Assembly: GCF_000142905.1 (NCBI RefSeq)
Contig: NW_013657655.1
Coordinates: forward strand, 372,001-436,000
Direction: 5' to 3'
Source: Thecamonas trahens ATCC 50062
Lineage: Eukaryota > Protista > Apusomonadida
DNA: 64,000 bases
In this document: positions 38,749-64,000 of the stretch, piece after piece
How positions within the stretch are numbered: position 1 is the first letter of the stretch
How the letters are laid out: each line of letters opens with the position of its first letter
Translations under genes and position numbers: made by a program
The notes under the pieces: generated by a model
The model's input: the letters and a program-made list of their open reading frames with translations, nothing else
What the model was told of the DNA's origin: nothing
Databases searched by the model: none

Positions 38749-39198
38749 GTTGAGAGTTCGAGTAAAGTGTGTGTGACTGATGGACGGCTGGCCACCATTC
38801 GACCATTCGTCACTTTGTTGTATTGATCCTGTCCTCAATTCCCACTATGCCTTCGAATCGAATCCATTGCACACAGTGCCAATGAACCGAATCCCATTAT
38901 CAATAGCCAACGATTGTTGTTGTTGTTGTTGGGGAGGGGGGGAGAGGGGATTAATCGTTCGCCAACGATTATCTCTCGGGTGCCTTGCTTTCGTTCCCCC
39001 CCCCCCCCCCGCCCCTCCCCCCCCCGCTCCTCCTCCTTTTCCTTCCTCAACCTTTGCTGTTCCTGCCGCCGGCCGCCGCTCGACTCACGCCGCCAGCGCC
39101 TGCAAGGGAAGGGCGCGTGCGACAGAGTGTGGGAGGGGGAGAAGGCACACCTCACCCTCCCTCCCCCCCCCCCTCCCCCTCCCATATCTACCTCTGGC

Positions 39199-40797
39199 AT
39201 GCACATCCGCCTCGTGGTTGTGCTGGCTGTCGCCGTGGCGGCGGCGGTGGTCTTCCTCGGCGGCGAACCCGTGGCGGCGACGGCAGGCGCGCGGGTGAGC
39301 TCCGGCCTGGCGATATGGATCCCATTCTCGGAAACACCCGCAGCGAGTGCAGCCGACGTGGCGCCGGTAGGTGGCAAGCCGTCTGCGGTGGACGTGGCAC
39401 TGGAGCTAAAGCACGTGACATGGCTCTCGTCGCTGGCACCGGCGGGCGGGTACGAGCCGGCGGGCGTGGCCATCGCGCCTGGGTGCGGGACGTGTGGCGC
39501 GCCCGGAGTGAGCGACAAGCTCGCCATCAGCTCGCTGGCGGATGCGAGCTTTGCCTCACAGCGCGGGTTTTCCATCGATCTCTGGTTCCGCGTCCATAAC
39601 ACGTCGCTACACGCGCCGCTGCTCGACGTGGCGCTTGCAGCCGGCGACCTCGAGCCCGGGTGCTCGTCGGGTGCGACGACGCTGCGGTCGTTTGCGGTGG
39701 CCCAGCGCGGCGATGTGCTCGAGTGGTCACTGTCGGACAAGATCAGCTCGGTAGACACGTGTCGGACGTGCGCGTCGGCAGCCGGCACTCTTGTGGCCGG
39801 CGAGCTGTACCACGCCGTCGCCGTGGTCTCTGACGGCACCTCCCCGTCGGTTATGGACCTGTACATCAACGGGGTGTCGGTTGCGTGCGGTGCGTCGGTG
39901 AGCGGCGCGGCGACCACCATTTCGGCGTCATGGGTGACTGGGCCCAACTCGCGCTGGCTGGCGCTTGGAGGCCGGGTCTCTTCCTCGGACTACGACCTGT
40001 GGACCGGCAAGCTTTACTCGGTCGCGCTGTATGCGGCGCCGCTGACGCCCAGCGAGGTGCAGACCAACTACCGCGCCGGCGAGTACAACCATGTTCCGGT
40101 GGCGCTGGCGCACACGGTGGCCACGCTCGAGGATACGGCGGTCTTGGTCCAGCTCAACGCTTCGGATCCGTACGACTCGGTCTTCACCGCGCGGATCACT
40201 ACGCTGCCACTCTCGGGCGCGCTGTACCAGTCGAGCGAGGCCGGCGGGCCAGCGGTGGCGGGAGCAATCACGACCGTCCCTACGGTGGTCACCTCGGCGT
40301 ACAACCGGGTGTGGTACGTGCCGGCGGCCAACGCGTCTGGCGTGGGCCTCGCCTCGTTCGCGTACACCATGGACGATTCGGAAGCTGTGTCGGCACCGGC
40401 GACGGTGACGGTCGACGTGAGCGCGGTCGACGATCCGCCGGCGGTGCTGGCGTCTGTGGCGGCGGTGGCAGCCGGCGGCGGGGCGACGGCCATTCCGGGC
40501 CTCTCTGTGGCCGAGCCCGACGGCGAGACGCTGAGCCTCGTCCTGCAGGCCGACTCGGGCCTGCTCACTCTCGGCTCGCTGACCGGGCTCATTTGCCGGG
40601 TTGGCTCGTGCGCCGGAGACACTGCGCTGATGGTGGAGGGCTCCGCGACGGCGCTCAATGCCGCGCTCGGCTCGCTCTCGTACTCGACGCTCCTGCTCGC
40701 CTCGGGCTCGGACACCGTGGTGGCGCGGGTTAACGACGCGTCTGGCGGGCCGTGGGCCGAGGCTTCTGTCGCCGTCACCGTCACTACGTCGTGCTGA
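39199..40797 (+). CDS. Secreted protein: LamG/ConA-like domain + cadherin-like/bacterial Ig repeats
   Basis: Signal peptide MHIRLVVVLAVAV. LamG FSIDLWFR...YHAVAV...LYING...LYSVALYAAPLT. Ig-like NHVPVA...TLEDT...SFAYTMDD...VTVDVSAVDDPP. Confidence 0.75.
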   Translation: MHIRLVVVLAVAVAAAVVFLGGEPVAATAGARVSSGLAIWIPFSETPAASAADVAPVGGKPSAVDVALELKHVTWLSSLAPAGGYEPAGVAIAPGCGTCGAPGVSDKLAISSLADASFASQRGFSIDLWFRVHNTSLHAPLLDVALAAGDLEPGCSSGATTLRSFAVAQRGDVLEWSLSDKISSVDTCRTCASAAGTLVAGELYHAVAVVSDGTSPSVMDLYINGVSVACGASVSGAATTISASWVTGPNSRWLALGGRVSSSDYDLWTGKLYSVALYAAPLTPSEVQTNYRAGEYNHVPVALAHTVATLEDTAVLVQLNASDPYDSVFTARITTLPLSGALYQSSEAGGPAVAGAITTVPTVVTSAYNRVWYVPAANASGVGLASFAYTMDDSEAVSAPATVTVDVSAVDDPPAVLASVAAVAAGGGATAIPGLSVAEPDGETLSLVLQADSGLLTLGSLTGLICRVGSCAGDTALMVEGSATALNAALGSLSYSTLLLASGSDTVVARVNDASGGPWAEASVAVTVTTSC

Positions 40798-43771: not shown

Positions 43772-46700
43772 TCACAAGCTGCCGAGCTGGCCAGCGTTGA
43801 CCAGGTCAAGGAGCTCGGCGATGGTAGGGCGGAGGGCCGGATCAGTGTCCCAGCAGCGGGCCACAGTCTCGCGCACGCCGTTGGGCAGCAGGTCGACAGC
43901 TGGCCGCCAGCCGGAGAGCAGCCGGTAGCCGACCTCGAGCGCGTTTTCGCCGCGGAAGGCGGCCTGGCCAGTGGAGAGCTCGTAGAGGAGCGAGCCAAAG
44001 ATAAAGACGTCGGTCTCCGGGCGGGAAGCTTCGCCGCGCAGCGTTTCAGGTGCGGTGTACGCTGCCGAGGGAATGGCGGTCATCGTTCCGAGGTGCATGC
44101 GAAGGATGTCCATGCCAAAGTCGGTGAGCGCCACGGCGGCGACTCGCGGCCGGGTTAGTGCCGGTTCCGTGCGGAGCTTGACAAAGACGTTGTTTGGCGA
44201 GAGTGCACCGTGGCCGGCGCCGGTGGCGGCGTGCAGCGCCGCGAGCGCTACAAGCAGGCATTTGACCAGGCACAGTCTGTCTAACGACGACATTGAGCCC
44301 GCGGCCTCAGTCATGGACGGATGGTTGAGCTGTGCAAAGACGACAGCGATGTACGGGCTCTCGACGCAAAGCCCGACCGGCCCGGCGAGCGCCGAGTGTG
44401 CTCCTCCCGCGCGCGAGGCCTTGGCTGTGCTGGCAGCAACACTGATGAGCTGCGCAGGCTCGAACCGCTGCTTCAGCAGAACCTTGACGGCAACAGGGCC
44501 AAGCGGTGTTGTTGCCGAGTAAACGGTGGCGTACGAGCCGAGCTCCCGCTTCCCGCCCTGGCCAATCAGCGCCGCGATGTCCCGGGCTGAGTACAGCGTC
44601 ATGAGGCCTGCTGGCTGCGAGCGGCGCATTGACATGGAGTGCGTCAGCGAGGCGGAGAAAGACGTGTCGTGTGGGAGGCCGATGATTGCATCGACTTCAG
44701 CGAACGACTGGCCCACGTCAGGGTGTGAGCTCATGTCATCAGCGAGGACAGTTCCGAGGTTGTCGTCGATGGACGCAAGAGCGGTCTCGTCGTCCGACAC
44801 AAGCGCCTCGTCGGCGTCGTTGCTTGACTCAGTCAGTGCGCTCGGGCCGGCGACATCACCGTTGGTCCGCGTATCTACGCGCGGCTTGGGCTTTTGCTTA
44901 ATGCGGAAGAGGAGGGCCGCATCGGCGGCCACAGGCTCGACAAGCAGCTGGTCATGCCCGGGCATGGCCATGTCGTCAAAGAGCGACGGCCCAATGTAGA
45001 CGCCCGGTTCGAGGCTGGTTAGGCCGCCGGGACTGGTCGACTCGCAACGTGAAAGCGACGACACCGAGTCTGTGTCGGTCGGCTCGAGCCGGAGGAGCGA
45101 CGGCGGGAGCGAGCCGCCAAATGCGGCCTGCCATACGTCCTTCAGCTCGTCCATGACCGCGCCGTGGAAGACGAGCTCGTCGGCAGTCGACGGCGCCGCA
45201 CCCTGAGCCGTCGAGGTGAAGACCTGCAGCGCCGAGGTCGAGGTGATACTACCATGCGCAGCGACGGCAAGCAGCGGGCCAACACGCTTACAAATGGAGA
45301 GTATGCCTTGTATGACGTTGCCGAGCTGGCGCGGATCCTGCAGCGAGATAGTGACCGATTCAAGGGTCCACGAGAGGATGGCGCCGTGGGCCTGGGTCGC
45401 CACCACGCGCGTCCTAGCGTGGAATCGACGCAGAGCCTGGGCGGTGGCGTCCGGGGCCAGAATGAGACGCGAGCCGAGTTTGGCGACGACGACGTGGACG
45501 AGGACAACCGAGCCCGACGGAGCGGCCGGTGACGACGGCGGAATGACGTTAGTTGGGTCATAGAGCGAGGCGAGGCGCGAAACAATCTGGGCCGGCAGTG
45601 GCCGCGCCACCGGGTCGTGATGCCAGAGCGCCTGAATGAGCGAGCGAAGCTGGCTGAGCTGCGGCGGAACGGCGCGGATGTCTGGCCGGCGGCCGTGGAT
45701 GACGTCGAGGGCAAGCGCCAGCGGGTTGACTTGCGGGTAGAGCTCTGCGCGGGATGCCAGCTCCCATAGTGTGATGCCGAGCGCGTACATGTCGGACGCG
45801 GTGGTGAGCGCGGTGCTGCCGCCGATAAGCACCTCAGGCGCGGCCCAGAAAATGGAGCCGACATTGGGTCCGGTGCCTGCGGCCGACGTCTCTGTGGTCA
45901 TTGGCGACTGAGGCGGCGTGAGCCGTGGCGTGGTCGAGTGCTCTGGGACCGGGCCGACCTTGTTCCTACGGCGGGTGCGGGTCGCTGATGCGCGGCTGTC
46001 GTGTGCGCCGCCCGATTCAAAGAGCGAGATCGACATACCGGTTGTGACCAACTCCTGAGCGCCGTCCGAGGCGTCGATATTGACTGGGCGCCCGGCGGGT
46101 GTGGCAGGCGCAGAAGAGTTGGCGGCGTTCATGCAGAGCGCGGGCAAGGGCTGACCGGTTGGCGCCTTGATTGAGGCGAGGCCAAAGTCGGCAATCTTGG
46201 GTACCCAGTTTCCGTCAAAGAGCACGTTGAGCGACTTGAAATCGCCGTGGACGACGCCGGCGTGTGCCAGATACTGCAGGCCAAGGGCAATGTGGTGGGC
46301 CCAGCGGAGGACAATAGACGAGTCGAGGAAGAATGCGTCTGAGGCGAGGACGTCGGCGAGATTCCCGCGCGACATAAACTCGGTCACAATCGCCGGCGGA
46401 TCGAGGTGGATGCCCATGAAGAGCACAATGTTGGGGTGACGGAGGCGGAGGAGCATGCTCGCCTCGTCGACAAACTCACGCATCTGCCGGCCCTGCAGCG
46501 GGCCTGCACGGGTTCTCTTGACAGCCACCTGGGTCCCGCGCCACATGCCGCGGTAGACGACGCCATATGAGCCGGTACCCACCACCGGCCCGAGGCTCAC
46601 GTCCTCGGCTGGGATGACCAGCTCGGCGTCCGACTGGAGGCGGAAGGTGGTGACCGACCGGTGGCGGAGAACGATGATGGCGACGACAGCAACAACGGCG

Positions 46701-48367
46701 GAGCAGACGCACGCGGCCGCGAGCGCGATGGCGACAACAGCCGCAGTTGAGAGCGCACCCGCCGACATGCTCACAGACCGAGAAGGTGGCGAGAGCTTAA
46801 GGGTGTACCCGAGGCGAAGTTCAGACGAGACCTGTAGACCAGGAGCGTGCGCGATGGCGCGGATCTCGTGGGCACCGTCAGTGGAGAGCGAGATATGCTG
46901 GGCAAAAACGAGGGCGTCGGTAGTCGGCTTGGTCCCATCAAGAGTGTAGTAGAGAGTGGCGCCGCGGGTGAGGCTCGAGAGGACAACCGCAAGCTCGTCG
47001 GTGTATGTGCCAGACGGATGCGAGGCTGTCGGTGCGACGGTAAGCGAGAGGATTGACGCGAGGCGGACGGCCTCCAGGCTCGGAAGCTCGGCGTCAAAGT
47101 GGGCGGCCAGAGCGGTGGCGGATCGATTGGCCATGGCGTCAAGGCCAAAGGAGAAGGCGCTGTACTCGAGGACGAGATCAATGACGCCAAAGCCAGCAAG
47201 CGAGCGCTCAAAGATGTCCGAGGCAGCCGCGAGCTTGGCCTTGGCCACTTCCGAGCGCGGGTGTGTGACGAGCGAAAAGAGTGAGGGTCGCAGCGGCAAG
47301 CCCGACATGACGCTTGCGGCGGTGAAGGCAGCGGCATAGTGGGTCGTGTTCCCGGCGTGGGCAACAAATGCCATGGCCTCATCTGGGTGAAGGGCGGTGC
47401 GCGGGACAGCAAGAGTGACGAGCGTCATTAGAACGCCCGGGATCGAGTTTGGCGGCGCCGAGCCACGAGCGCCATCGTAGGCCGGAAAGACAAAGGCACC
47501 GATGTCAGCGGAGGGCATGCCCGCGAGGATGGGAAACATGGTAAAGGCTTCAAAGCCGCAGAACATGGCAACGTGGCCATGGGCCATGTCCTGAGGCAAA
47601 TACGGGGCCGTGCCGTTGACGTGTGGGTTGGGCACCCCAAGATAGCCGGCGGTCATCAGATCGGCGAGCTCGTCAAAGGTGGCACGGACTCGCGGATCGG
47701 TGAATGCGATGCGGCCGTTGAAGAACTTTTTGTAGAAAGCGTTGCCATGCATCCGCAGCGCAAGCTCGTCAAAGTACGCAGTGTTGGGAAAGAGCGGCGT
47801 GTCAGCGGCGAGACAGCCGATACCGGCGGCGGTCACGGCGGCGCACACAGCCTTGAGCTCCGAGAGGGTGCGCGGCGGCGAGAGGCCAAGCGCGTCAAAG
47901 ATTGGCACCGAGTACATGCACATGTTAGGCTCGGCCGAGATAGGGACAGCGTACATGGCGCCGTCTGCGCCGCGCGAGCGGGCGATGGCAGCAGGCACAA
48001 CGTCGTCCCACACGCCAAGCGCATCCCACACGTGGTCGAGAGGATAGTAGTTGTCGCCAGTCAGCAGATTGAGGCCACCACCACCAAGGTATGATGGTAC
48101 AACGTCTGCACCACGCGAGGCTTGTAGCCATGGGGTGTACTTTGAGGCATCGGGTGAGAAGGCGACGTAGATGAGGTCTGCTTGGGCACCTTCTGGGCGG
48201 CTGTTGTACTCGTTGACGAGAGCGGCGAACGCGGGCGAGGTACCAATGCGAGGATCAATGGAGGTGTATACCCGTAGCCTCGGACGTAGCCCGTGGACAC
48301 CGTTCATCCACACCAGCAACCACACCAGCAACCACACAAGCACCAGCCCGCTCCTCGATGCGTTCAT
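43772..48367 (-). CDS. Receptor-type TKL kinase: signal peptide, ABC-type solute-binding ectodomain, Fn3-associated/CHB_HEX_C domain, TM, kinase, degenerate cyclase-like domain, pseudokinase
   Basis: ATG 48367. DGAMYAVP, GLSPPRTLSEL (SBP family 1). PSGTY...LYYTLDGTKPT. Kinase 1 GTGSYG/VAVK/HGDFKSLN/DFG/APE. Kinase 2 HGALSPNN/DFG/APE. Confidence 0.85.
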   Translation of the reverse strand: MNASRSGLVLVWLLVWLLVWMNGVHGLRPRLRVYTSIDPRIGTSPAFAALVNEYNSRPEGAQADLIYVAFSPDASKYTPWLQASRGADVVPSYLGGGGLNLLTGDNYYPLDHVWDALGVWDDVVPAAIARSRGADGAMYAVPISAEPNMCMYSVPIFDALGLSPPRTLSELKAVCAAVTAAGIGCLAADTPLFPNTAYFDELALRMHGNAFYKKFFNGRIAFTDPRVRATFDELADLMTAGYLGVPNPHVNGTAPYLPQDMAHGHVAMFCGFEAFTMFPILAGMPSADIGAFVFPAYDGARGSAPPNSIPGVLMTLVTLAVPRTALHPDEAMAFVAHAGNTTHYAAAFTAASVMSGLPLRPSLFSLVTHPRSEVAKAKLAAASDIFERSLAGFGVIDLVLEYSAFSFGLDAMANRSATALAAHFDAELPSLEAVRLASILSLTVAPTASHPSGTYTDELAVVLSSLTRGATLYYTLDGTKPTTDALVFAQHISLSTDGAHEIRAIAHAPGLQVSSELRLGYTLKLSPPSRSVSMSAGALSTAAVVAIALAAACVCSAVVAVVAIIVLRHRSVTTFRLQSDAELVIPAEDVSLGPVVGTGSYGVVYRGMWRGTQVAVKRTRAGPLQGRQMREFVDEASMLLRLRHPNIVLFMGIHLDPPAIVTEFMSRGNLADVLASDAFFLDSSIVLRWAHHIALGLQYLAHAGVVHGDFKSLNVLFDGNWVPKIADFGLASIKAPTGQPLPALCMNAANSSAPATPAGRPVNIDASDGAQELVTTGMSISLFESGGAHDSRASATRTRRRNKVGPVPEHSTTPRLTPPQSPMTTETSAAGTGPNVGSIFWAAPEVLIGGSTALTTASDMYALGITLWELASRAELYPQVNPLALALDVIHGRRPDIRAVPPQLSQLRSLIQALWHHDPVARPLPAQIVSRLASLYDPTNVIPPSSPAAPSGSVVLVHVVVAKLGSRLILAPDATAQALRRFHARTRVVATQAHGAILSWTLESVTISLQDPRQLGNVIQGILSICKRVGPLLAVAAHGSITSTSALQVFTSTAQGAAPSTADELVFHGAVMDELKDVWQAAFGGSLPPSLLRLEPTDTDSVSSLSRCESTSPGGLTSLEPGVYIGPSLFDDMAMPGHDQLLVEPVAADAALLFRIKQKPKPRVDTRTNGDVAGPSALTESSNDADEALVSDDETALASIDDNLGTVLADDMSSHPDVGQSFAEVDAIIGLPHDTSFSASLTHSMSMRRSQPAGLMTLYSARDIAALIGQGGKRELGSYATVYSATTPLGPVAVKVLLKQRFEPAQLISVAASTAKASRAGGAHSALAGPVGLCVESPYIAVVFAQLNHPSMTEAAGSMSSLDRLCLVKCLLVALAALHAATGAGHGALSPNNVFVKLRTEPALTRPRVAAVALTDFGMDILRMHLGTMTAIPSAAYTAPETLRGEASRPETDVFIFGSLLYELSTGQAAFRGENALEVGYRLLSGWRPAVDLLPNGVRETVARCWDTDPALRPTIAELLDLVNAGQLGSL

Positions 48368-48886
48368 ACTGTGGTGGTGGAGGCGACAGCCGAGTTTTTC
48401 TCCCCCAGCACGTGGAAGAGGAACGGAACGGAGGTATGCACGTATGTGCCTGTGTGCAAGGAGTGGTATGGGGTGGGTGGGGGGGGGTGGGGTGGAGGGG
48501 GCAGGGTGGGGGGTGGGGGTGTGGGGGTGTGGAGTGGGGAGGGTACGGTTGAGGAGTGTGGGGTGTGGGGGGGGCGAGGGCTGTAATGGTGGTATGATGG
48601 TGCCGACTTTGGTTGGAGTGAAGAGCGAGTTTGTCTGGTTGGGTCTGGGGATGAGGTTACCGGGATTGGGAGCCAGGATGAAGGCGAAGGGGAAGAAGAG
48701 TGGGGGTAGGGGGGGGGTAGGGATTGGAGGGTGTGTGTGGTGGTGGTGGTGATGGGTGCGGGTGTGTCTGGGGTTAGTGTAGGTTGCAAACGTGTGGCAG
48801 GTAGTGTGATGAGGTTGGTCAATCAAGGACGTGTGCACACTAATTGGCAGAGCATGTGAAAAGGGCGTGGGCGTGACGGAGCGGTG

Positions 48887-50969: not shown

Positions 50970-52745
50970 CTATCCACGTGGGTGGGTACCAGACGGGGCC
51001 TGGAGCGAAAATCGCGGCAGGAGCGAGTCGCTAGGCGATGGCGGTCGGCGTGGCAGTCGGCGGCGTACAAGGGTAAACGGCATGGCGCGGATGGCCGAAA
51101 ATACGTTGTCGACGTCGGCCGAGGCGTGTGCGAGGAGCGTGTGGAGGTCTGCGGCCGAGGCGTGGAGGGTGGCCAGCGGGCGCTCACCAACGCCAGCCGC
51201 CATGATGGGGACGTCGGCGACGCGGTAGGCGGCGACGATGCGCTCGAGAAGGCGGATTCCCGATGCGTCGAGCGATGGCATGGCGGCAAGATCCAGGATG
51301 ACCGCGACTGGCGGGAGCGGATCGGTAAGGAGGCCCATGGCGGCAGCCTCTAGCCGCGGAACGGCGGGGAAGAGGAGCGGGCCGGCGAGGTGCAGAACAG
51401 TTGCATCCTCGACAAATGAGACCTCGATCCGCGGGTGGGAGTTGAGGTAGAGCAGGGCAACGATAGAGGCGCCAAGGCCAATGGCGATGCCGTAGGCAAT
51501 GCCGAGACCAAGGCAGGCAACAAAGGTGCAGCCGGCAACAGCAGTCTCAGCCGGCGACGTCCGCCAGAGAAAGACCCAGTGCGAGGCCTCGAACATCGGC
51601 ACAACGGCGGTGATGATGATGGCGGCGAGCGAGACCTTAGGAACAAAGCAAAAGAGCGTCGTGAGCAGGTTGATGGCGAGGAGGACAATGACAGACGACA
51701 TGATGCCGGCAAGCGGCGAGCGGGCGCCCGACCGCGATTGCACGGCCGAGCGCGAGAATGAGCCTGTGACCACAAAGGCCGAGGCAAACGAACCGAGCAC
51801 ATTGGCCATGCCCAGCGCAAAGAGCTCTTGCGAAGGCCCAACGTTGTAACCACGCGAGGCGCCGAATGCCTTGGCAATGGATATCGACTCAAGGAAGCCG
51901 ACGGCGGCTGCCAGCGGGACGTACGGGCCGATTGCGGCGCCGATGCGCGGGAGCGAGCCAAGCGAAGGGACGGTAAACGAGGAGGCAAAGACAGACGGCA
52001 CGTGGCCAGTGAGCGCAAATGGCGAGGAGGCACACGATGCACGGCAGTCAAGCGAGTGGCCGCAGGCGGCCTGATAGCCGACCACAAAGGCGGTACTGCC
52101 GAGGACGGCGATGGCGTTGCGAGCGGTGCCGAGGGCGCGGCAGAGCCGCGACGACGAGCCCCATGCGTCGCGAGCAGCCTTGAGAGCAACCACAACCGCG
52201 ACTCCTCCCATGCCCAAAAGCAGATCTGGCCAGTGGTCGCGGACATTGATGCCCCAGTGCTCAAAGGTGCGGACGACGTCGTCGTAGAACGAGACCGACG
52301 AGCCCGAGGAGCCAAAGAAGTGATGAAGCTGGCCAAAGCCGATGGTGACGGCAGCTGACGAGACAAAGCCATCGATGACGGGCGCAGAGAGGAACGAGAC
52401 CAAGCCGCCGGCGCGCACAAGGCTCGCCAGGATTTGGGTAGCGCCGGCCAAGAACGAGAGCACAGCCGCGGCAGCGACCTTGTCAGCGGGAGCCTCCATC
52501 GAGGCCACAGCATGTGCTACCATGAGCGACATGATGGCGGTTGGCCCGACAGCGATGTCGCGCGAAGTGCCGAGAACAGCATACACAAGGGGAGCAACCC
52601 ATGCCGAGAGCAGGCCGTACTCGACAGGAAGGGTGGCGATCGATGCGTAGGCGAGCGCTTGCGGGACGACCATGAGCCCGACAGTGACCCCAGCCTCAGC
52701 GTCGGCCAGCAGCCACGAGAAGGGGTAGGTACGGAGCCAGGTCAC
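50970..52745 (-). CDS. SLC26/SulP anion transporter with STAS domain
   Basis: AGVTVGLMVVPQALAYA, GTSRDIAVGPTA, SQELFALG, TGSFSRSA, STAS ILDLAAMPSLDASG. An in-frame stop just upstream means the true 5' exon is unresolved. Confidence 0.92.
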   Translation of the reverse strand: MTWLRTYPFSWLLADAEAGVTVGLMVVPQALAYASIATLPVEYGLLSAWVAPLVYAVLGTSRDIAVGPTAIMSLMVAHAVASMEAPADKVAAAAVLSFLAGATQILASLVRAGGLVSFLSAPVIDGFVSSAAVTIGFGQLHHFFGSSGSSVSFYDDVVRTFEHWGINVRDHWPDLLLGMGGVAVVVALKAARDAWGSSSRLCRALGTARNAIAVLGSTAFVVGYQAACGHSLDCRASCASSPFALTGHVPSVFASSFTVPSLGSLPRIGAAIGPYVPLAAAVGFLESISIAKAFGASRGYNVGPSQELFALGMANVLGSFASAFVVTGSFSRSAVQSRSGARSPLAGIMSSVIVLLAINLLTTLFCFVPKVSLAAIIITAVVPMFEASHWVFLWRTSPAETAVAGCTFVACLGLGIAYGIAIGLGASIVALLYLNSHPRIEVSFVEDATVLHLAGPLLFPAVPRLEAAAMGLLTDPLPPVAVILDLAAMPSLDASGIRLLERIVAAYRVADVPIMAAGVGERPLATLHASAADLHTLLAHASADVDNVFSAIRAMPFTLVRRRLPRRPPSPSDSLLPRFSLQAPSGTHPRG

Positions 52746-53143
52746 GATAGGGAGGTGCGGTAGTGGAAGCCTTGGGGGCGGTAGCGCATGCCCGGATCAT
52801 GGCCCATGTAGAGTTGGCACAAGAGCAAGTGCAGCTAGAGGTGTGGTTGGTGGCCGAGGTGCATGTCACGCGGACGGGGAGGGCGCCGGCGTGGGCCAGA
52901 ACCACTCGACGCGCGACAGTCAGCCGATTGTCTGCGTCTCTCCAATGCGTGCTGAATGATAGTTCTGTATCGGTGAAGGTTGCTAGGCGCAATTGATTGA
53001 TTGCGGGTGGTAGTGGTGACGTGGCACGTGGCGAGACGCAGTGCTGGCCAAAGTCGGCTGCGGCGATCGGCCAGGGCAAGTTGTGTGATGGAAAGGGCAT
53101 GACTCTGCGTTGTGTTTGCATTTTAGTCTGTGTAAGCTGTTAG

Positions 53144-56100
53144 TTAGAGCAGGCCGTGGCGCATCTTAGCCGGCGGCTGGCTCGAGTCGGTGTTGCTGGC
53201 GTCGAGGCTGCGGTGATCGCCGCGACGACGCTTGCGCGACAGCGGCGGCGACGTCCCCCGCGACGGCGACGTCTCCGACGGCGACGGCTCCGAGAAGTTG
53301 CTTGCCTGGCGCATCCGGGCGAGTTGATGCGGAGTGCTGGAAAAGGCGGTGTCGTTTGAGGTGGCGGACCGCGGGTTGAGCGTGGTAGCCCGGACCTGCC
53401 AGCAGTCGATGATGACGGCGCCGCGGCCGGCAGCAGCTGCCTGGCGCCACAGCCGGCGGCTCGTGATGACGTCGCGCGCGGGCAGGTTGGCGGGATCCAG
53501 GGCCGGCAGGGCCAAGATGGCGGGAAGGGTAGTGGTGGAGATGAAGACCAGGCCTGCGTTGGGCTTGCAGTTTGTCTTGATGCAGCGGACGATCTTGGTG
53601 CCCGATCGCACACCTTGCGGCACGTCGCCGGTGGCGCCAAGGCCGACGATGCCCGGCGAGGGACGATGGATGGCGTTGTAGAAGCCGCTGACGACGTTCG
53701 AGTCGGGGTTTTTGGATCGAGCCACCAGTGCGAGCTGAGCCAGCTCGTCGTAGGAGATTGTACGGTTGGCCATCTCGATGTAGCAGCGCGGATGGACGGT
53801 GCTGGCGTCGAGGATGCCGGGACGGACGTAACGGATGTTTTTGGCATCGGGTAGAAGAGTGGCAGCATCGAGAGCGTTAAGGCGGCGGTTCTCGACATCC
53901 ATAGCGACACACTTGTTGATTGTGGCGTTGATCCGGCCGATGGAAGCGGTGGTGTTGGTTTGTGTGACGCGGGTAAACTCGAGGATGCGGTCGTAGGTGA
54001 TGTCGACGACAATGCCAAAGGCATGCGCGCCGGCATGGGCCGAGATCGGCCCCTCAGTGGAGAATCGGGCAAGAGCCAGGCTGGCGGCGAGAGCCTCGGC
54101 GATGAGTGGAGTTGTGGAGGTGGAGACGACGGCGAAGTACGACGACTCGCCGATCGCGTGCTTGTTAGTGGCAGCGAGGAAGTGCATGAACGCCTCAATC
54201 AAGATGGGCTCCTGTGCCACAAACACGATGCGACTGGCGTCACAAGGGACGCGAATCAGATGGTTGCCAAGCCACGGGATACCAGAGAGGGTGTTGTGGT
54301 AGCATGCGACCGCATCTTCGAGGGAGGACGGAGCGGTGTGGGCGATGGAGACATCGACGACAGCGAGCGGGCCGTTGGCATCGCTGTTGGCGGTGATGAA
54401 ATCGTTGTACTCGCACTTGTTGGTGTCTGAGATTGCAGCAGCAAGCGTGACGTCCGAGCGGTCGTTGGCGATGTCGAGCATGAGGACGGCGGGCGGGTCA
54501 GCTCCAGGTGCTGGAGGGAACAAGTTGGCGCGGCAGCTTGAGAGACGGTTGATGGTGGTGTAGTCGTGGGGGGTCGCAGAGGCGTCGGTGAGGGAGAACG
54601 AGATGGTTGTGGCGACGGGATCGAGATCTCCGCGGAGGTTGTTTGCTACGGCGGCCACGATGCTGGGATCGTCGTTTTCCGCGGTGAGGATAGCACGCAG
54701 GTTGCTGGCGGTGTTGTAGCGGGCGTTCTTGATGGCGATGACGACTGCGCTCGAGTCGGCTCTGAGCTTCTCAACGGCCAACTTGAACTCGTTAAAGCGG
54801 AGGTTGGGCGTCGTTGGCGGCTTGATGGCAAAGGTCGCGGCGAGGTAGCACTTCTGAATGGCCTTGTTGAACGCCTTGACGACCCAAGAACGGATGGCAA
54901 TGAGGAGTGCGGCGACAGCGGCAGTGACGGCATCGCGGTCGGCTGCTGTGATAGCGGCGTGGAGCTCGTGAAGGAACCGCTTCTCAGCAGAACGAGAGAT
55001 GGTGGTAATGCTGGCGGTGTCGGGGACCATCAAGAGAGACAGAGCGTCCTTGTCGCGGTTGCGGATGTTGATCTCCAGGCTGTGCCTGATGCTGTCGGAG
55101 ACAGTGCGAGCTGCGTCGTCGATCATGTTGCATGTGGTCGAGAGGAGAGCAGCGCCAACTTCGTCCGTGTTCTGGACGAGCGTGTTGGAGTCAGTTGCGT
55201 GGTCAGGGAATCGAAGAGGCTCATTGAGGCTTTCCACAATGAGCTCTGCGAGGATGTTGACATCATACGAACCGGTAAGGTAGTCGATGGTGGGGCCCAA
55301 GTCCTGGTCGTAACAAGCCTTGGTGTTCCGGATGGTGTCGACAGAGGTGTTGATGATGTCGGTGACGTCGGCGTTGACTGGAGCGAGATCGTTGACTTCC
55401 AGGGTACGGACGCGGCGAACGATGCGGGAGGCAGCGTTGGCGACGGTGCTGCCGGCAGCTGCACAAGCCCACTCGACCATATCCGCAAGCCAGGCGTGAG
55501 CACGAGTAGAAAAATCGAGGAGGCACGAGGCGGCAACACTAAGCAACTTGAGGTTGGTGATGTCGAGGAAGAGGTGCGGGGACGATGCGGCGCGGGCGGT
55601 GCGGGCGATCTGGCGAAGAAAAGGCCACGGATTGGTGTTGACAGGCACGGAAGCCGGGTCAATGGCCAAGAGGCAGGTCATGATAGCATCCGTTAGTTTG
55701 GCGTTGTCGTCGTCACCAAGGCTAGAGGCGTCGACGTTGCAGAGGTTGACAACAAACGGAACGCGAGCGTCGTCGATGGGGCGGGAGGCGATGGCCTGCA
55801 TGAGGTGTTGCAGGTTGTTGGCGATGGCGACACGGCGGGTGATGACGCAGATGATGTCGATAGCGGCGATGGCGGCGGCGATGTCGTCGGGCGAGGCCTT
55901 GGGGCCGAGGCCGGGGACGTCGACCGGCTCGAGGTAGGGGCCGGTCTTCCAGGGGCCAACAGCCTCGATGACGGCGCCAGGAGGGGCAGAGGCGGAGGCG
56001 GAGGCAATGACGGCGGGCATGGTACGCCACTCGACAGGCGAGATGCTTACAGGATCTGAGCAGGGCGTACGCGTCTCGCGGTCGACGATGCGGACGATGA

Positions 56101-56674
56101 GCTGCTCGCGGTTGTAGACGAGGTGGACCGGAACGGTGGTGACCGAGTTGGCGCCCGCCGAAGACGGCAGTGGCCACTGCCCAAAGAAGTCTATGAGATC
56201 AGTGATGGGCAGATCTGGCTCTTGCTTGACAGCAATGGTAGCAAGAGTCTGCATATCGGCCACGAGCTGATTGAGGCGACAGGACTTACCGCAGCCCATG
56301 GGAGCAAAAATGGCCACAGTGACACGCCGGTGAAGAAAATTGTGAGTTACAGTACGGAACTCTGAGACCTTGGCGATATAGTTGCAGTCAGTGGGGGTCG
56401 CGAGCTCTGTCGCAATCTGGAGCTGGCTTAGGCGTTGGATGCTATCGAAGGACCGGACGGGGATAAGGCCGGTGGAAGGGTAGGTGGCAAGAAAATCCGA
56501 TGTGGTTTGAACACGGCAGGCAGTGGAAGCGGTGGAAGAACAGTTGTTGGCCTTGCGGCGCTTGGCCTTGGCCTTGCGGCGCTTGGCCTTGGCCTTGCGG
56601 CGCTTGGCCTTGGTCTTGCGGCGCTTGTGGGAGGACTCGCGGCTTGAGCGAGATGGGTTGCTTGACTTCTCCAT
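53144..56674 (-). CDS. 1176-aa dynamin-like (Dynamin_N-type) GTPase with basic N-terminal repeat and divergent C-terminal domain (possibly GREB1/TAGT glycosyltransferase-like)
   Basis: Intronless ORF. G1 APMGCGKS (~56282-56305), PLPS...VTTVPVHL (G2), VDVPGLG (G3), NLCNVD (G4-like), followed by a helical region. Confidence 0.7.
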   Translation of the reverse strand: MEKSSNPSRSSRESSHKRRKTKAKRRKAKAKRRKAKAKRRKANNCSSTASTACRVQTTSDFLATYPSTGLIPVRSFDSIQRLSQLQIATELATPTDCNYIAKVSEFRTVTHNFLHRRVTVAIFAPMGCGKSCRLNQLVADMQTLATIAVKQEPDLPITDLIDFFGQWPLPSSAGANSVTTVPVHLVYNREQLIVRIVDRETRTPCSDPVSISPVEWRTMPAVIASASASAPPGAVIEAVGPWKTGPYLEPVDVPGLGPKASPDDIAAAIAAIDIICVITRRVAIANNLQHLMQAIASRPIDDARVPFVVNLCNVDASSLGDDDNAKLTDAIMTCLLAIDPASVPVNTNPWPFLRQIARTARAASSPHLFLDITNLKLLSVAASCLLDFSTRAHAWLADMVEWACAAAGSTVANAASRIVRRVRTLEVNDLAPVNADVTDIINTSVDTIRNTKACYDQDLGPTIDYLTGSYDVNILAELIVESLNEPLRFPDHATDSNTLVQNTDEVGAALLSTTCNMIDDAARTVSDSIRHSLEINIRNRDKDALSLLMVPDTASITTISRSAEKRFLHELHAAITAADRDAVTAAVAALLIAIRSWVVKAFNKAIQKCYLAATFAIKPPTTPNLRFNEFKLAVEKLRADSSAVVIAIKNARYNTASNLRAILTAENDDPSIVAAVANNLRGDLDPVATTISFSLTDASATPHDYTTINRLSSCRANLFPPAPGADPPAVLMLDIANDRSDVTLAAAISDTNKCEYNDFITANSDANGPLAVVDVSIAHTAPSSLEDAVACYHNTLSGIPWLGNHLIRVPCDASRIVFVAQEPILIEAFMHFLAATNKHAIGESSYFAVVSTSTTPLIAEALAASLALARFSTEGPISAHAGAHAFGIVVDITYDRILEFTRVTQTNTTASIGRINATINKCVAMDVENRRLNALDAATLLPDAKNIRYVRPGILDASTVHPRCYIEMANRTISYDELAQLALVARSKNPDSNVVSGFYNAIHRPSPGIVGLGATGDVPQGVRSGTKIVRCIKTNCKPNAGLVFISTTTLPAILALPALDPANLPARDVITSRRLWRQAAAAGRGAVIIDCWQVRATTLNPRSATSNDTAFSSTPHQLARMRQASNFSEPSPSETSPSRGTSPPLSRKRRRGDHRSLDASNTDSSQPPAKMRHGLL
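56547..56626 (-). repeat. Coding 21-bp tandem repeat (KAKRRKA)x~4
   Basis: TTGGCCTTGCGGCGCTTGGCC units on the + strand. Confidence 0.9.
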
Positions 56675-56762
56675 GGGTAAAGTCGAGTGGATGCCGGTGA
56701 GGAGTTGGCATATGTGTGGAAAAAGCGCAGGGTTTTGTTAAGGAAGTGGGACCAGAAACTGC

Positions 56763-56811
56763 AAAGTGCAAAATGCATCGGCTGGCAGGCTGATTTGCAT
56801 TTTTGCACTTT
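56763..56811. promoter_or_regulatory. Inverted repeat/hairpin upstream of the GTPase gene
   Basis: AAAGTGCAAAATGCA (56763-56777) pairs with TGCATTTTTGCACTTT (56796-56811). A third TTTTGCACTTT copy lies at 56957-56967. Function is inferred. Confidence 0.45.
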
Positions 56812-57172
56812 TACTCTGCAGGGAATGTTGGGCCATGAGAGGTAGCGAAGGTGTGTACAAGGGTATGGTAGCATGTGTAGAAGCACTTGGATGGATATCT
56901 GTGTGGATGTGGATGTGCGTGTTGTCGATGAGGATGGGGGGGCTGAAGGTGAGCGATTTTGCACTTTTTGCCCTGGGCAGCGCCGGTGGCCATTGTTCCG
57001 CGGCGTAAAAGGGAGAGAGGGAGAAAGATAGGGGAGCTTGACATGCCGTACAAGCAAGACAGTGGGGAGAAGATAGTGTAGCGAGTGAATGGGGGAGGGA
57101 GTCTCTTTGTTGTGGTGTTGACGGCGCCGGTGGTGGTGGCAGGGAGGGGGGGTCCAGAGGCACCGGGCCGTG

Positions 57173-57212
57173 GCTACTTTCGATTGCGACATGCTACTTT
57201 CGATTGCGACAT
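57173..57212. repeat. Perfect 20-bp tandem duplication
   Basis: GCTACTTTCGATTGCGACAT x2. Confidence 0.95.
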
Positions 57213-60200
57213 TACCGACTCTAGGCCGGCTAATGTAGTTGCTTGAGCTACTTTAGGCCTGCCAAATACATGATGACATCAATGCTGGCAAATGGACCCA
57301 GTGCGTGCAGGACTGCATCGTAGGTGTCGCAGTGATCAAGAAGGAGGGCCAACACGACGGCGTCGTTGATGTCGGCGGTGGGCGGTGGGGCGCCCGGGAC
57401 GGCCTGGGTGGCAGGGTTGGGCTCAGAGGCGTTGGCGTGGTCTGTAGAATCCATCACTGCTGGATAGGTACGAAAGGTGTGGTAGCGAGACAGGTGGGGA
57501 ATAAAGTTGGCCGGGTTGTACGGCAATCCGAATGTAAAACAGCGAGTGCGCGAGGCGGAAATGGGTGAGGAACGGCAGGGATTGAGGCATGCATGGGTAG
57601 GGCGGCGTGGGAAAAGTCAAGCAGGCAGCAAACAAGAGTCTTGGCGGGGGAGGAGGGGAAAGCCATGGTCAAAGTCACGTTAAGCGTGCCGCGGATCATG
57701 TTGGTTATGGTAGAGCTGATGTTGCTTCTCTTGTCACTCTTGCTGAGACAATTGCTGTCGTCGTGATGCACGTCGTCGTCCAACTCGTCCCACGCCGTTG
57801 TCGTCAGGGTTGAGGCATGGGTAAGGCGATGGGAGTGGGTGCAGGCAGAGTAAGTAGCAGCAACAAAGGAGCAGAGGGAAGGCGGGGGTGGGGATGTGTT
57901 TCGGAGGAGAGTGAGAGTGGGAGTGCCCTATCCTCGGCCAGCCAGCCGTCGGATTGGGTCATGATCGGCGGCGCAGTAGGCGGGAAGGAGGCGAGGCAAG
58001 ACAGAGCAGGCAAGGTGGGGTTGATGAGACGGAAGCAGGCAGTTGTGAGCTGCGAGGCAGAGTAGAAGAGAGTGAGGTGGAGGGAGAGCAGAATCAAAGT
58101 CAGGCCGATGATCATGGGTGCGTCATCGTGAGTCGGTGTCGGCTGGCAGCTGAGTCGGCCGGGGTGTTGGTGACGACGATGGTGACAACGGTAACGACTC
58201 GCACCAGGTCAACTGGCTCTGGGCCCATCACACTCGCACTCCTGAACCCGTTCGCCGTTCTGAAGTTCCGATCTCAGGCCCTCACCCTCGACCTCGGCCT
58301 GACTGCTCGCCTGTGTCGGGTGTCGTTCACTTGACTGCCCGGCAGCGATGCAGCGCCGATGGTCATCCACAGCAGCTACCTCGCTCGCAACGTGTGGTTC
58401 ATGCCTATTCTCTTCCTTCTCTCTCCGCAGAAGCCACAGCCTCGGCCTCAGCCACCGCCACCGCTTTGGCTCGTCGTCCGCCGCCTCAACCATCACACCC
58501 ATCGCCAGCCATCGCCATCCCCCATCCCCATCACTATCCTCATCAGCATCAGCAATATCACCAACTTGGTCATCGCCGCCTTGGGCCTGGACTTTCTCTT
58601 CTCCCGCCTCAGCAGCAGCACGGCGTCCATGCCGGCGACGAGCGGCTGGCCGTCACTCGACCACTCGCTGCTCGCCTCGGCCTCGGCCACAGCAGCAGCG
58701 CTAGCAGCAGCCGTAGCCACCACACTCGTCCCACTCCATCCATCTACACCCCCTCACCTCCTTTCCCTGTGACCACACCAGCCACTCCCCCCTGTATAGC
58801 CAGATGCAGGTCGTGCTGAGCTTGATCGGGCTTGATTTGGCTTGGCTGCGGATAGTTGAGCGGGCGGGCGAGCGAGCGGGGAGTTGCTGGCCAGCGAGCA
58901 GTCGACAGGAGACGACGACACGGGCATCAGGACACAAGATCGGGCGGCAGACCAGTGTAGTCTTATCTACCACCTCAACCCCTAATCCTTCTCCTTCGCC
59001 CTCCTTCCCTCTCCTTCGCCCTGACCAGCCCACTGGCCTCGTGTGACCCGTCGGTCCTCTCACCACCAGCTGTGTTGGTTGACAGGTGGGCTGGGGCAGG
59101 ATGGGCAAAGCGGGGAGAAGGAGGGGAGGAGGAGGTGGGGCAAGGGACTGATAGCCACTGCCACTTGTCTCACTACCCACAAGTAGATCATGCTATACTC
59201 GTGCTCTGCCTAGCCTGATCGGGGTTGTGCCGGCGGTGGACGGGTCGGCTTGGGCGGCGATCGGTGGTGAGCAGCAGGCGGTCGGCAGTGATGCTGATGA
59301 CGGGATTGTGTCGGCTGATGTTAGTATCGAGGCAAGGGGATTGGGTGGGTGAGATTGTGGGGATAGTGGATAAGTGTGGTGTGGGTAGGGTGGTTGTGGG
59401 TTGGGATGGTGGGGAGTGGGGGTCGGAGATGGGACTGGGTCGGGGGGCTGAGCACCTTCGAAGGGACACCGGGCCAACAGCTTGGGCCTGAGCCGGCGGA
59501 ACTCGGATTCTGGAATACTGCAGCTGTGGAGTGGAGACTGAGCAAGGTGGTAGTGTGTGTATGTATTAGGGTAAGAGTGTAATCAGATTGGCCATATCTT
59601 GCAATGAGTGTGATGGGGGTTGTGTGCGGGGTCGGGCGGTCGAGGGCGTGCTCAACCGCCTAGGGAAAACAAGTCGACGCGCAAGTGAGCCGAGGAAGAT
59701 GAGTGTCGATGACAGCGATATTGATACTGGTGATAGTGTGGGGTGTGTGATGACATTGGGTGAGGTTGTGGGTAGCGTAGCTGGTAGTAGGAAGGAGCTA
59801 GGTGGTGATGAAGATGGGCCTGATCGGGCGAGCGGGCGCCGGCTGGCGGCTGGTGGTCGGCGAGGCGGAGCAGTTGAGGGAGCTGGGTCGGGGCTGGATG
59901 GCTTGGAAATGCTTTTGGTTGGTGAATAGGCAGTCTGCCATGGGATGGTTAAGGGATGACGGTGTCGGAGTCGGGGAAGAGGATGGGGGTGAGCTGGAGC
60001 GGGGAGAGGAGGAGGATGAGGAGGAAGAGGAAGCCGAGTGCGCGATGGGATGATGGTGGGCTTGGCCATGGCATGGGGGTGGGAGTTGTGGCTGGGATGG
60101 AAGTGATGGTGGTGGAGTAGGGGGTGGGGTGGTCGTTTGTGGTGACGGGTGGTAATGAGTATGGTAGGGGGGATGAGGGGGGTCGTGATGTGGGAGGCGG

Positions 60201-61285
60201 GACGGGCGAAGCGGTGATGGATATGGCAATTGGGCTTGAGCATTGATGACGATGGGAATGATACGGCTGATGGGTGTGTGTGGGGTGTGGTTGATGAGGG
60301 TGGCGGGTACTTGGCCGGCAGAGGGAAGGCGGCGGACGTTAATTGAGTTGAACGTTGAATTAATTGAAGAAAAGCCGGAACCAGCGTCAAACGAGGCAAT
60401 GACGACCACAACAACAACCAAAGATCATACATGGCTTGCACAGCACACGTATGAGTAAGCCAACAGGGACTGAACAAAGCTAGCAGGCAATGGGATGAAC
60501 TCGGGTGACGTTCAGGTCGATGAGGCAGACCGCGGATGATCGATCAGATCTCCAGATCAACCATGATCACGACACAACAGGGTGAACACAAAATACATTG
60601 CATGCACAACTATTGACCATGGCCAACGACAACAAAGTTGAGAATCGATGGTGTAGTGAGCAACGGTCGATCAAGGATGTGGAAGTCAAGGTTGATGAAA
60701 ACAGGAGAGTCAAGAACAAATAAAGCATGACAAATAATGATAAAAAGCAACAACAAGAACGAAAGGAATGATCAATGGGGATGCATGTCGATTGTAGTCA
60801 ACCATCACAGGCAAAAGCAACCAAAGCAGAACATGAAGGCCGACAATAGCAACAACAAAGCATGTGGAAACATGAACGGCAACAAACAAAGAACAAGGTA
60901 AGCCACCAACAAGAGAGCAGAAAGAATCGAATGATCAATTAACAATGATCAATGACAATCAATTGAATGTCAAACAATCAAACGAGTGACGAGTGGCGAA
61001 TCATGGAAATATTGAATGACGTTCATGTCACCCACCAACCCGCACATGCCACTCGGCCGAACAAGTGACACGGGCAAGTGTCAATGGAGGGATGGGGAAA
61101 TTGAATCAGCATCAAAGACTCAATTCAGGCCCGTGCACAGCCATGTGCATGGTGGCGTCGAGGATGAGTATGGTGAAGTGGGTGGGAATGTGGATGTGGG
61201 TCATGGGTGGGATGGGTAGGGGTGGCAAGGGGGCAGTGAGTGGCAAGTGGAGTGAATGGTGGTCGGTGGGGAGAAATGGAGTGGG

Positions 61286-61351
61286 GCTAGGGTTGATGAG
61301 GCATCAGCTAGGGTTGACGAGGCATCAGCTAGGGTTAGGGTTAGGGTTAGG
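61286..61351 (+). repeat. 21-bp tandem repeat merging into interstitial telomeric (TTAGGG)n
   Basis: GCTAGGGTTGAYGAGGCATCA x2, then TAGGGTTAGGGTTAGGGTTAGG (61330-61351). Confidence 0.85.
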
Positions 61352-61418
61352 TGCAGCTTGGGGTCGGTGCCGGGGGTGAGGCTTTAGGGGGGGTGGGGTC
61401 CGTGGTCTGGCGGAGGGT

Positions 61419-61616
61419 GAGGCTTCAGGCTTCAGAGAGCTAATGCCTGAGTTCCCGAGGCTTCAGGCATTATGCCTGGCTGAGGCCTCAAGGCCTGACC
61501 CGGCAGAGCTAATGCCTCAAATGAGCCAATTAGTTCTCCCATGGGAGCTAAAGCCTCGAAGAGCGGCATTAGCTCCGAGGTCTGGGAGGCATAGGGTTAA
61601 TGCCGGGCTTAATGTC
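61419..61616. repeat. Cluster of short direct and inverted repeats and palindromes
   Basis: AGAGCTAATGCCT at 61436 and 61505; inverted GGCATTAGCTC at 61565; GAGGCTTCAGGC at 61419 and 61457; palindrome CTCCCATGGGAG at 61536-61547. Confidence 0.8.
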
Positions 61617-62224
61617 NNNNNNNNNNNNNNNNNNNNNNNNNNNNNNNNNNNNNNNNNNNNNNNNNNNNNNNNNNNNNNNNNNNNNNNNNNNNNNNNNNNN
61701 NNNNNNNNNNNNNNNNNNNNNNNNNNNNNNNNNNNNNNNNNNNNNNNNNNNNNNNNNNNNNNNNNNNNNNNNNNNNNNNNNNNNNNNNNNNNNNNNNNNN
61801 NNNNNNNNNNNNNNNNNNNNNNNNNNNNNNNNNNNNNNNNNNNNNNNNNNNNNNNNNNNNNNNNNNNNNNNNNNNNNNNNNNNNNNNNNNNNNNNNNNNN
61901 NNNNNNNNNNNNNNNNNNNNNNNNNNNNNNNNNNNNNNNNNNNNNNNNNNNNNNNNNNNNNNNNNNNNNNNNNNNNNNNNNNNNNNNNNNNNNNNNNNNN
62001 NNNNNNNNNNNNNNNNNNNNNNNNNNNNNNNNNNNNNNNNNNNNNNNNNNNNNNNNNNNNNNNNNNNNNNNNNNNNNNNNNNNNNNNNNNNNNNNNNNNN
62101 NNNNNNNNNNNNNNNNNNNNNNNNNNNNNNNNNNNNNNNNNNNNNNNNNNNNNNNNNNNNNNNNNNNNNNNNNNNNNNNNNNNNNNNNNNNNNNNNNNNN
62201 NNNNNNNNNNNNNNNNNNNNNNNN
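61617..62224. other. Assembly gap (N run)
   Basis: Run of N; hides the recombinase stop codon. Confidence 1.
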
Positions 62225-64000
62225 CCCTTCTCGTGGAGGCCAACGATGAGCTGCAGGATCGAATTGTGATCAAGGAAATTGCGCACGGCGTGCTGCGATG
62301 GCGGCACGTTCTGCTCGGCCATGTAGGCAAACAGATCGGCGAGCGTCTCCTTGTCCTCTCGGTTCCAGTCCGCACGGGCGACCGAGCCAGGAGTGTCGGG
62401 CTGGCGGCGGCCTCGCGTTGAGCGCGACGAGGTTAACGGGGTTGACGGTGTGGCGACGGCGTCAAAGTTGAGACCCACCGAGGCGTCCGCGTCCGAGTCG
62501 GCAGTCGGGCGAGCCACCGACGAAAGCAGGCGGAAGAAGACACCGTCGCGGGAAGCCAGCACCGTCTCGCGGACATGCTGGTAGACGGCAAGCCGGGCAG
62601 TGGTGAGACCGCGAAGCTCCCGGGAGTAGAAGACCTCCGAGGTCTCGCGGGAGTGACCCATGCCAAGGTTGAGGATGGCATCAAGGGCAGTGTCGCACGG
62701 CGAGTCGACAAGAACTTGATCAATGTGCTTGCGGATGAAACGAGAGGTGGCAAGCGCTGCAAAGTCCTCAACGACATCAGGGTAAGCATCGAGAGAGCCA
62801 TCGTAGGCGATGACAGCGGCCTCCAGCGCGTTGTGGACAAGTCCAGCAGCTCGTGCAGCGCGGTCAATGTCGCCCGAGAGGCGCTGCGAGGGGTTGCGCC
62901 AGTGCGGCAGTGCCAGCGGTGAGTCGAGAATGCCATCAATGTTGAGCTGGCGGACTCGGGCGTTCATGCGCAGAAGCATCTCGACCACGAGACGCGACAG
63001 CGGCAGCGGCTCGGTGACGATGTTCTCGTTCCGCTTGTTCTTGGTCGCCACGTTGATGTAGACAATATCATTGAGGGCGGCGACAATGCGGTCCTGACCA
63101 TCAAATGCAGCAAGCGCAGCGCTCGGGTAAGCCGGCTTGGGCGAGGCGTCCAAGGTGGTGTCGTCACGTGGGGTGAGCGGGGCACGGAGAGCCTCGGCGG
63201 TCATGGAGGTGATGGACGAGAGACGCGGCGGACGGCCGCAGACCAGCATGTTGAAGCGGGCGACGAGAACAAGCAGCGGACCGTACTCCTTGTAGGTCTC
63301 GATGGTGAAGTCGAAGGATGAGTGCAAGACACCCGAGTGGATGAAGGCGATGAGCAACTTGGCGCCGATGAAAGCGTACATGCGCGGCGTGAACTTGGCG
63401 TGCTGGACACGACGGGCGTGGTCAATGAGGTACGACTCGGCGCGGAGGGCCTTGAACTTCTGGAAGGTGGCCATGAGCGCCGAGAGAGCGTCCCAGATTG
63501 ACTTCCGGGTCGCCACAACCATGGTGACACGCTGATCAAACGTCGGGGTAAGGACCGAGTTCGCCACGTAGCCAAGCGAGGTGTCGATGAGATCACGGAG
63601 CGCAATGGCAGCATCGTACATGGTCGAGGCAGAAGGCAACGAGTCTTTGTCGGCCATGAGCAGGTAGTTGAAGAACAGATGGAAGCGGCCGGAGTTGTTC
63701 AACGCCCACGACGAGACTCTCCGGGCAAGCTCGTCGCCCGAGAGTGGCTTGACCGGCTGGTGCGGATAGAACCCGACGACCAGCCGCGGAATCCAGTTGA
63801 GGCGAGTGGAGACGCCGTGGTTGGGGCGGTGAGGGCGATGACCTCGTTCCACGAGTCAATAACAGCAACGCTGTAGACCTTGTACTGTGCATTGGACAGC
63901 GTAAGTCGAGCAGGGTACGACCACTGGGTGCCAGCAGGAACAGCAACCGAGGCGCGAAGTGCATCAACAAAGTCGTCCTCGTAGAGCGGAACGACGGGCA
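62225..64000 (-). CDS. Tyrosine recombinase/integrase (eukaryotic YR-element type); both ends outside readable sequence
   Basis: Catalytic residues in canonical order: GRPPRLSSITSM (R), ATKNK (K), SRFIRK (R), MGHS (H), EVFY (Y). C-terminal small helical domain DWNREDKETLADLF...PPSQHAV. A second open frame continues from ~63825 to the window end. Confidence 0.75.

Follow-up and report, generated by a model that had tools for sequence, protein, structure and literature searches.

What lies at the right end of a 64,000-nucleotide (nt) stretch of the genome of the marine protist Thecamonas trahens ATCC 50062 (contig NW_013657655.1, positions 372,001 to 436,000 of the forward strand; hereafter the window), where only two long coding-like frames are found between 53.1 and 64 kb, both on the minus strand, at 53147-56737 (1197 amino acids, aa) and 62226-63855 (543 aa)? 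A reading made from the letters alone (the sequence-only reading) had called the second open reading frame (ORF) a tyrosine recombinase (YR) and the first an orphan dynamin-like GTPase, and had placed both on one arm of a large, cargo-carrying element with a lifestyle like that of the Starships. Both ORFs are real. However, the recombinase-like gene belongs to a complete unit of 3314 bp with one gene, which we regard, with moderate confidence, as a Crypton-like DNA transposon with telomeric repeats as its specific insertion site and a circle as intermediate.

The size and organization of this unit are given by a metagenome contig of 6884 bp, L001, that encodes an intact recombinase-like protein of 772 aa twice and was found by a pattern search in which two of 245 matches were confirmed, both within L001. 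Its order is (CCCTAA)13, 3314 bp, (CCCTAA)14, 3314 bp and (CCCTAA)13, the three tracts (1-82, 3397-3485, and 6800-6884) being perfect and the first unit occupying positions 83-3396. The unit contains a single long coding ORF (772 aa), with no second gene and no cargo. According to an ORF inventory of the complete L001 unit, together with a family scan for reverse transcriptase (RT), it has no RT, RNase H, capsid, polB, or other viral core genes. The large element with cargo that had been proposed is thus reduced to a unit of one ORF between telomeric tracts.

The window contains the right 2.65 kb of this element (61352-64000, minus strand), as defined by its match to L001. Positions 62225-64000 are 97.7% identical to L001 748-2524, and positions 61330-61616 are 99.7% identical to L001 3132-3418, with the right junction to the telomeric tract included. 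Because the window matches L001 base for base across this junction, the element end is placed at 61352, and the earlier suspicion that the repeats at 61.3-61.6 kb mark the true end proved correct. From the L001 layout, the element would continue for about 665 bp past position 64000 and be followed there by a second telomeric tract. The assembled part of the ORF (62225-64000, minus strand; 772 aa in intact copies) contains, at 63822, a 1-nt deletion in a homopolymer that shifts the frame and splits the recombinase ORF. Contigs from four of 24 listed runs were mapped on 48-64 kb (X1, an estuary metagenome from 2025; X2, possibly the sample of the window itself; X6; and X8), and the extra base at 63822 is present at full depth in those from X2, X6, and X8, X1 having no cover there. 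The deletion is either an assembly error or damage confined to the window copy; an intron at this position had also been considered and was dropped in favor of the 1-nt deletion, from the L001 alignment. Between the window and L001 copies, 29 synonymous and nine non-synonymous codon changes were counted among 593 codons, none of them catalytic, an excess of silent changes. Within the element, an assembly gap of 608 Ns (61617-62224) matches 607 bp of L001, which hold the last part of the ORF and some of the 3' non-coding end. Its two sides are joined by one X8 contig, and P0006, the NCBI gene model, crosses it by splicing.

The ends of the unit have a character of their own. The TTAGGG patch that had been noted in the window exists but is short: it spans 23 nt (61329-61351, plus strand), reads CTAGGG-TTAGGG-TTAGGG-TTAGG, and its G-rich strand points right. 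The 5 bp at 61347-61351 (TTAGG on the plus strand, CCTAA on the other) form a direct repeat common to both element ends and are a candidate crossover core; in fact, the telomere register is perfect once the element and one CCTAA copy are taken out. Such a repeat is compatible with Crypton-type ends, without being proof of them. Inward from it, the right non-coding end (61352-61616, minus strand) is dense in the motif AGGCWTHA, with nine occurrences in both orientations that may be recombinase binding sites. The window has 15 of these motifs against 5.4 ± 2.5 expected (none of 100 shuffles reached 15), and 11 of them fall in 61299-61556, an excess which confirms that the repeat cluster reported at 61.3-61.6 kb is real. 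In L001 the motif occurs nine times in the 283-nt left end, 15 times in the 712-nt right end, and not at all in the ORF, the corresponding means of a dinucleotide-block shuffle being 0.06, 0.18, and 0.17. Among the 25 longest of 187 listed matches, the inverted ones are subterminal only, and there are no terminal inverted repeats (TIRs) or long direct repeats among these. Just outside the element, at 61287-61334 (plus strand) and within the neighboring high-copy repeat, two 21-nt repeats join a degenerate CTAGGG unit to AGGCATCA, the same motif as in the element ends; they may indicate that the recombinase is drawn to the subtelomere-telomere border, or may be the relic of a related element.

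The YR-like gene had been expected to belong to a multi-copy element, and this is what we found. Three T. trahens contigs (357, 436, and 571 kb) carry recombinase-like gene models, AMSG_03158 being a second copy, and the copies are 94-99% identical over most aligned blocks (89% in one block and 75% in another). Intact 772-aa versions sit on metagenome contigs of 3.5-6.9 kb. Furthermore, the depth of the YR-like ORF relative to single copy was 6.0 (X1), 7.0 (X2), 5.1 (X6), and 2.8 (X8), ratios that are rough because summed contig depth is no copy number; they use 21 of 30 bins, after exclusion of two spikes (48000 and 56544), of gap bins, and of bins that were mixed or in transition, with the GTPase contig itself as the single-copy baseline in X1. 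The DNA between the two ORFs, described before as gene-poor, is in its 59214-61349 part a very high-copy, G-rich, non-coding repeat, likely subtelomeric, with depth rising from about 58150 and reaching 48 (X1), 101 (X2), 112 (X6), and 77 (X8) times single copy between 59.2 and 61.35 kb. A scan with Rfam at E ≤ 0.1 found nothing inside this repeat and one chance match overall. In each of the four runs the 58150-61350 region is rich in variant sites; it is likely T. trahens subtelomeric sequence. Since the repeat is far more numerous than the element (8-fold in X1, about 14- to 28-fold in the three other runs), most of its copies should lack the element, an indirect argument for empty sites. The succession of unique genes, a repeat of rising copy number, and then outward TTAGGG suggests the base of a chromosome end, and it is there that the window element is likely located.

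Concerning the protein, we consider it very probable that it is a tyrosine recombinase, a call made on motifs and anatomy; no sequence or structure test reached significance. The candidate catalytic residues (P0003 numbering) are R387, K448, R548-x-x-R551, H577, and Y586. A full HMMER search over 1.84 billion representatives returned four proteins: a T. trahens copy, P0010 (45% identity over the matched stretch), P0011 (35%), and P0012, which was dropped as a repetitive chance match. P0010 and P0011 (41% and 31% identical), which together with their cluster mates are on contigs of 2.8-9.7 kb, retain R..TKN..SRF[IV]RKH..MGHS..FY, and the three divergent families share R387, T-K448-N, S-R548-F-[IV]-R551-K-H, G-H577-S, and F-Y586. 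When alignment columns were shuffled, a loose YR-order pattern appeared in 28 of 5000 cases and a stricter, post-hoc pattern in none of 5000. The R-K-RxxR-GH-Y order is kept in the relatives, but profile and fold tests stayed below significance, and the label given to this ORF by the sequence-only reading is not shown statistically. The ESM Atlas listed 23 unnamed clusters (the three shown being eukaryotic, at 0.93), as well as Phage_integrase (0.89; 29% of members) and NDC10_II (0.88). An AlphaFold model from the five-row alignment had a mean predicted local distance difference test (pLDDT) score of 43.6. In it, K448 falls on a beta-hairpin, RxxR and Y586 lie in helices, and the C-terminus forms a helical domain that is compact and conserved, most of its blocks scoring pLDDT 74-86; the single-sequence fold was unusable (pLDDT 33). 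Sequence searches of the PDB, this domain included, gave blank or chance matches, and the term Myb-like for it is our own impression. A VIA search had no YR in the 50 rows shown, the helical bundle 190-324 filling the lists so that the catalytic part was barely tested. No relatives were found in IMG/VR, prokaryote genomes, or phages, and an alignment-based word search, insensitive enough to miss P0010 and P0011, yielded no new homologs.

How could such a unit move? In the likeliest scheme, the enzyme binds to the ends with their dense motifs, and its conserved C-terminal helical domain could be what contacts the AGGCWTHA motifs or telomeric DNA. YR chemistry would then be carried out by R387, K448, R551, and H577 with Y586 as the nucleophile, and a crossover inside the 5-bp CCTAA would excise the unit as a circle, leaving the telomere tract in perfect register. 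The circle would recombine into (TTAGGG)n, sparing genes. This excision-reinsertion scheme is proposed by analogy with the Crypton model, in which the elements are described as having 4-6 bp direct repeats at their termini and a circle has been proposed (Kojima and Jurka 2011; PMC3212892), and with CryptonF-1_cRei, reported as active with a 5-bp target and clean excisions (PMC9977147).

Several observations weigh against a telomere-specific Crypton-like transposon. The left junction is seen in L001 only, and since the two L001 units differ by one N only, their doubling may be an assembler loop; it could also be a tandem array or a circle with its tract. A target with a 6-bp period always allows some repeat of 0-5 bp, so that the 5-bp repeat is not diagnostic. 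The predicted circle junction was absent from IMG/VR, a collection not expected to hold one. As for the enzyme, the first His position, that of H-x-x-R, would be occupied by Arg, and Pfam, NCBIfam, and PHROGs gave no match for the protein. Comparison by hhalign with eight phage integrases and seven Cre-like proteins gave probabilities of 0.2-0.6%, and shuffled controls scored as high in 4 of 60, 9 of 50, and 6 of 50 cases. Foldseek, run on the pLDDT 43.6 model, placed lambda Int, several Cre, and nudivirus VLF-1 only at E 0.05-1.2, among unrelated rows. One could then suppose that the protein is not a tyrosine recombinase, and that a telomere-associated unit is moved by other chemistry, as the sub-threshold outcome of every profile and fold test would allow. 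We find this improbable in view of the order and spacing of the invariant residues and of the Atlas neighbors; moreover, hhalign still pairs TK and GH..Y with K235, H333, and Y342 of lambda Int, which we take to be catalytic.

The main rival does without transposition altogether. It sees in the unit a subtelomeric one comparable to Y' of yeast, which would spread in a passive manner (through homologous recombination, break-induced copying, or telomere circles) whatever its protein does. The long telomeric tracts on both sides of our unit, the tandem or looped layout of L001, the presence of the neighbor repeat itself at many loci, and the undiagnostic direct repeat would all suit such a process. 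However, at the 61350 bin border depth falls sharply, from 344-735 on one side to 5-35 on the other, the oriented motif is dense in the ends and absent from the ORF, and the YR-like residues are invariant at 31-41% identity, and we hold passive spread to be unlikely, if more plausible than the other alternatives. A host-serving, telomere-embedded enzyme of the YR family, akin to a resolvase or protelomerase, that processes fusions or circles of telomeres, its copies being gene duplicates, would account for the excess of silent changes, the telomeric position, and the conserved C-terminal helical domain. It fits poorly with a depth ratio that varies between runs (2.8-7.0), with a discrete unit that has motif-rich ends, and with homologs as rare as three true ones among 1.84 billion, and seems to us about as improbable as the non-YR explanation.

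The dynamin-like ORF (AMSG_06097; 53147-56737, minus strand) lies outside the Crypton-like element, about 4.6 kb from its right end, and is without its depth. Its model on the 436,284-bp contig has an extra first exon from 57454, with N-terminal motifs mapping to window positions 57454, 57289, and 56641. It has a G1-like APMGCGKS at residue 145 (A for G), a G2-like PSS..TTVP at 191, a G3-like DVPG at 273, and an atypical G4 at 331, the G1-G4 labels being our assumption. Searches of Pfam, NCBIfam, PHROGs, and PDB sequences were blank, and the top ten ESM Atlas matches were of Dynamin_N type at 0.86-0.87, below the lead threshold of 0.9. With the family scans blank for both proteins, the GTPase label, like the YR label, derives from motifs and weak look-alikes. 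At 56547-56630, a 21-nt tandem repeat encodes KAKAKRR, a basic stretch close to the protein's N-terminal end, and the region near the C-terminus has another basic patch, RKRRR; these might be nuclear or nucleolar signals, which would be unusual in a dynamin-like protein.

That this GTPase is cargo of a Starship-like element, of which the window would hold one arm, is very improbable and largely refuted. In its favor are the two orphan ORFs on the same strand, the bin-mean depth over the GTPase, which in all four runs is 1.5-2.9 times that of the host genes at 48.5-52.8 kb, themselves richer in GC, and one X1 contig that exits the GTPase ORF at 54075 in a loose end; the raised bin means and this loose end would leave room for a second GTPase copy. 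Nevertheless, the YR unit is complete without cargo, and the GTPase is bridged to the gene on its other side, a host sulfate transporter (SulP/STAS; 50970-52796, minus strand; PF00916 E 1.4e-83) that serves as synteny anchor. This bridge is present in two of the four runs: one X1 contig of 4123 nt (record 5, 52486-56606, 33 differences) runs from the sulfate-transporter ORF through the GTPase ORF, and in X2 record 10 (52548-53184), among 31 pieces listed, spans the same boundary. In addition, GTPase contigs are at host-gene depth in X2, X6, and X8, and AMSG_06097 is on one contig only within its 90% cluster. It is therefore likely an ordinary host gene. Finally, PF11917 (DUF3435) gave no match in any of the five family members at E ≤ 5, and with no DUF3435 captain, a unit of 3314 bp, and no second gene, nothing Starship-like is left.

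Elsewhere in the last 11 kb, the other frames of at least 250 aa are shadow frames, a low-complexity frame at 59569-60543, an unexplained one at 56431-57252 (274 aa), or frames crossing Ns. The window has two more N gaps, at 6651-7073 (423 bases) and 14022-14121 (100 bases). Two ORFs further to the left combine several domains: one of 1704 aa (43775-48886) joins bacterial-type solute-binding, chitobiase/Fn3, and protein kinase domains in a receptor-kinase-like fusion, and another (38827-40794) carries Laminin_G_3 and bacterial Ig/cadherin-like domains.

With respect to known systems, the Crypton-like unit has the architecture of a Crypton, being a DNA element with a YR-type protein, no RT, and a short terminal direct repeat. 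The likeness is to CryptonS and CryptonF as outlined in PMC3212892: a few kb, one YR-type ORF with an extra C-terminal domain, no RT, no TIRs, and a direct repeat of 4-6 bp. The same source derives Cbf2/Ndc10 from CryptonF. In contrast to Cryptons, our unit would target a telomeric hexamer, has no Pfam match to GCR1_C, DUF3504, or NDC10_II, and is found in an apusomonad. CryptonV, a YR DNA transposon of cnidarians described as specific to microsatellites (Kapitonov and Jurka 2012, as cited in PMC8869645), resembles it by that description in inserting specifically into simple repeats, which here would be the telomeric tract of an apusomonad instead of cnidarian microsatellites. TATE, a YR retrotransposon of Leishmania and other kinetoplastids, is reported to form tandem clusters at telomeric GGG^TTA (PMC6681497; PMC6390901). 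It shares with our unit a fixed hexamer position, GGG^TTA coinciding with one edge of the 5-bp repeat, but TATE and DIRS-type elements carry RT, whereas the unit is a single ORF with no RT or RNase H. Endogenous nimaviruses are described with telomere-associated YRs and with reads running end to end across the telomere tract (Kawato et al. 2023; PMC10871703). By that description, the YR-linked insertion in telomere repeats is alike, and the end-to-end reads (concatemers or episomes) resemble L001. However, those viruses are given as about 280-580 kb, with majaniviral YRs typically accompanied by C2H2 and a SAM-like domain, while the unit has 3.3 kb and no viral genes. Starships, given as 77-195 kb in PMC9156397, have YR-type mobilization alone in common with the unit, which is more than 20-fold smaller and has no DUF3435 and no cargo. 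By analogy, then, the unit would work like a Crypton whose target preference is that of TATE and of the nimaviral telomere YRs.

Target-specific DNA transposons are described as rare in eukaryotes (PMC8869645), and a full-text literature search, with Repbase Reports outside its scope, found neither a telomere-targeting YR DNA transposon with a single gene nor any element of this type in Thecamonas. As far as that search reached, telomere-targeting YRs are otherwise found only in TATE and giant endogenous viruses, and the unit could represent the free-standing form of such modules. We give even chances to its representing an undescribed lineage of minimal YR transposons without RT, in which marine metagenomes would contain three or more divergent families and TTAGGG itself would be the recombination site. 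The apusomonad telomere repeat was called unknown in 2013 (PMC3622300). The perfect (CCCTAA)13-14 tracts of L001 adjoin DNA 98-99.7% identical to T. trahens, and are indirect evidence that this repeat is TTAGGG. If the Crypton-like reading is true, a one-gene element would be the simplest system for studying how a directional hexamer array can be recombined by a YR, an enzyme that normally needs inverted-repeat sites, and a single enzyme of 772 aa would integrate DNA site-specifically into telomeric arrays and could remodel the chromosome ends of apusomonads.

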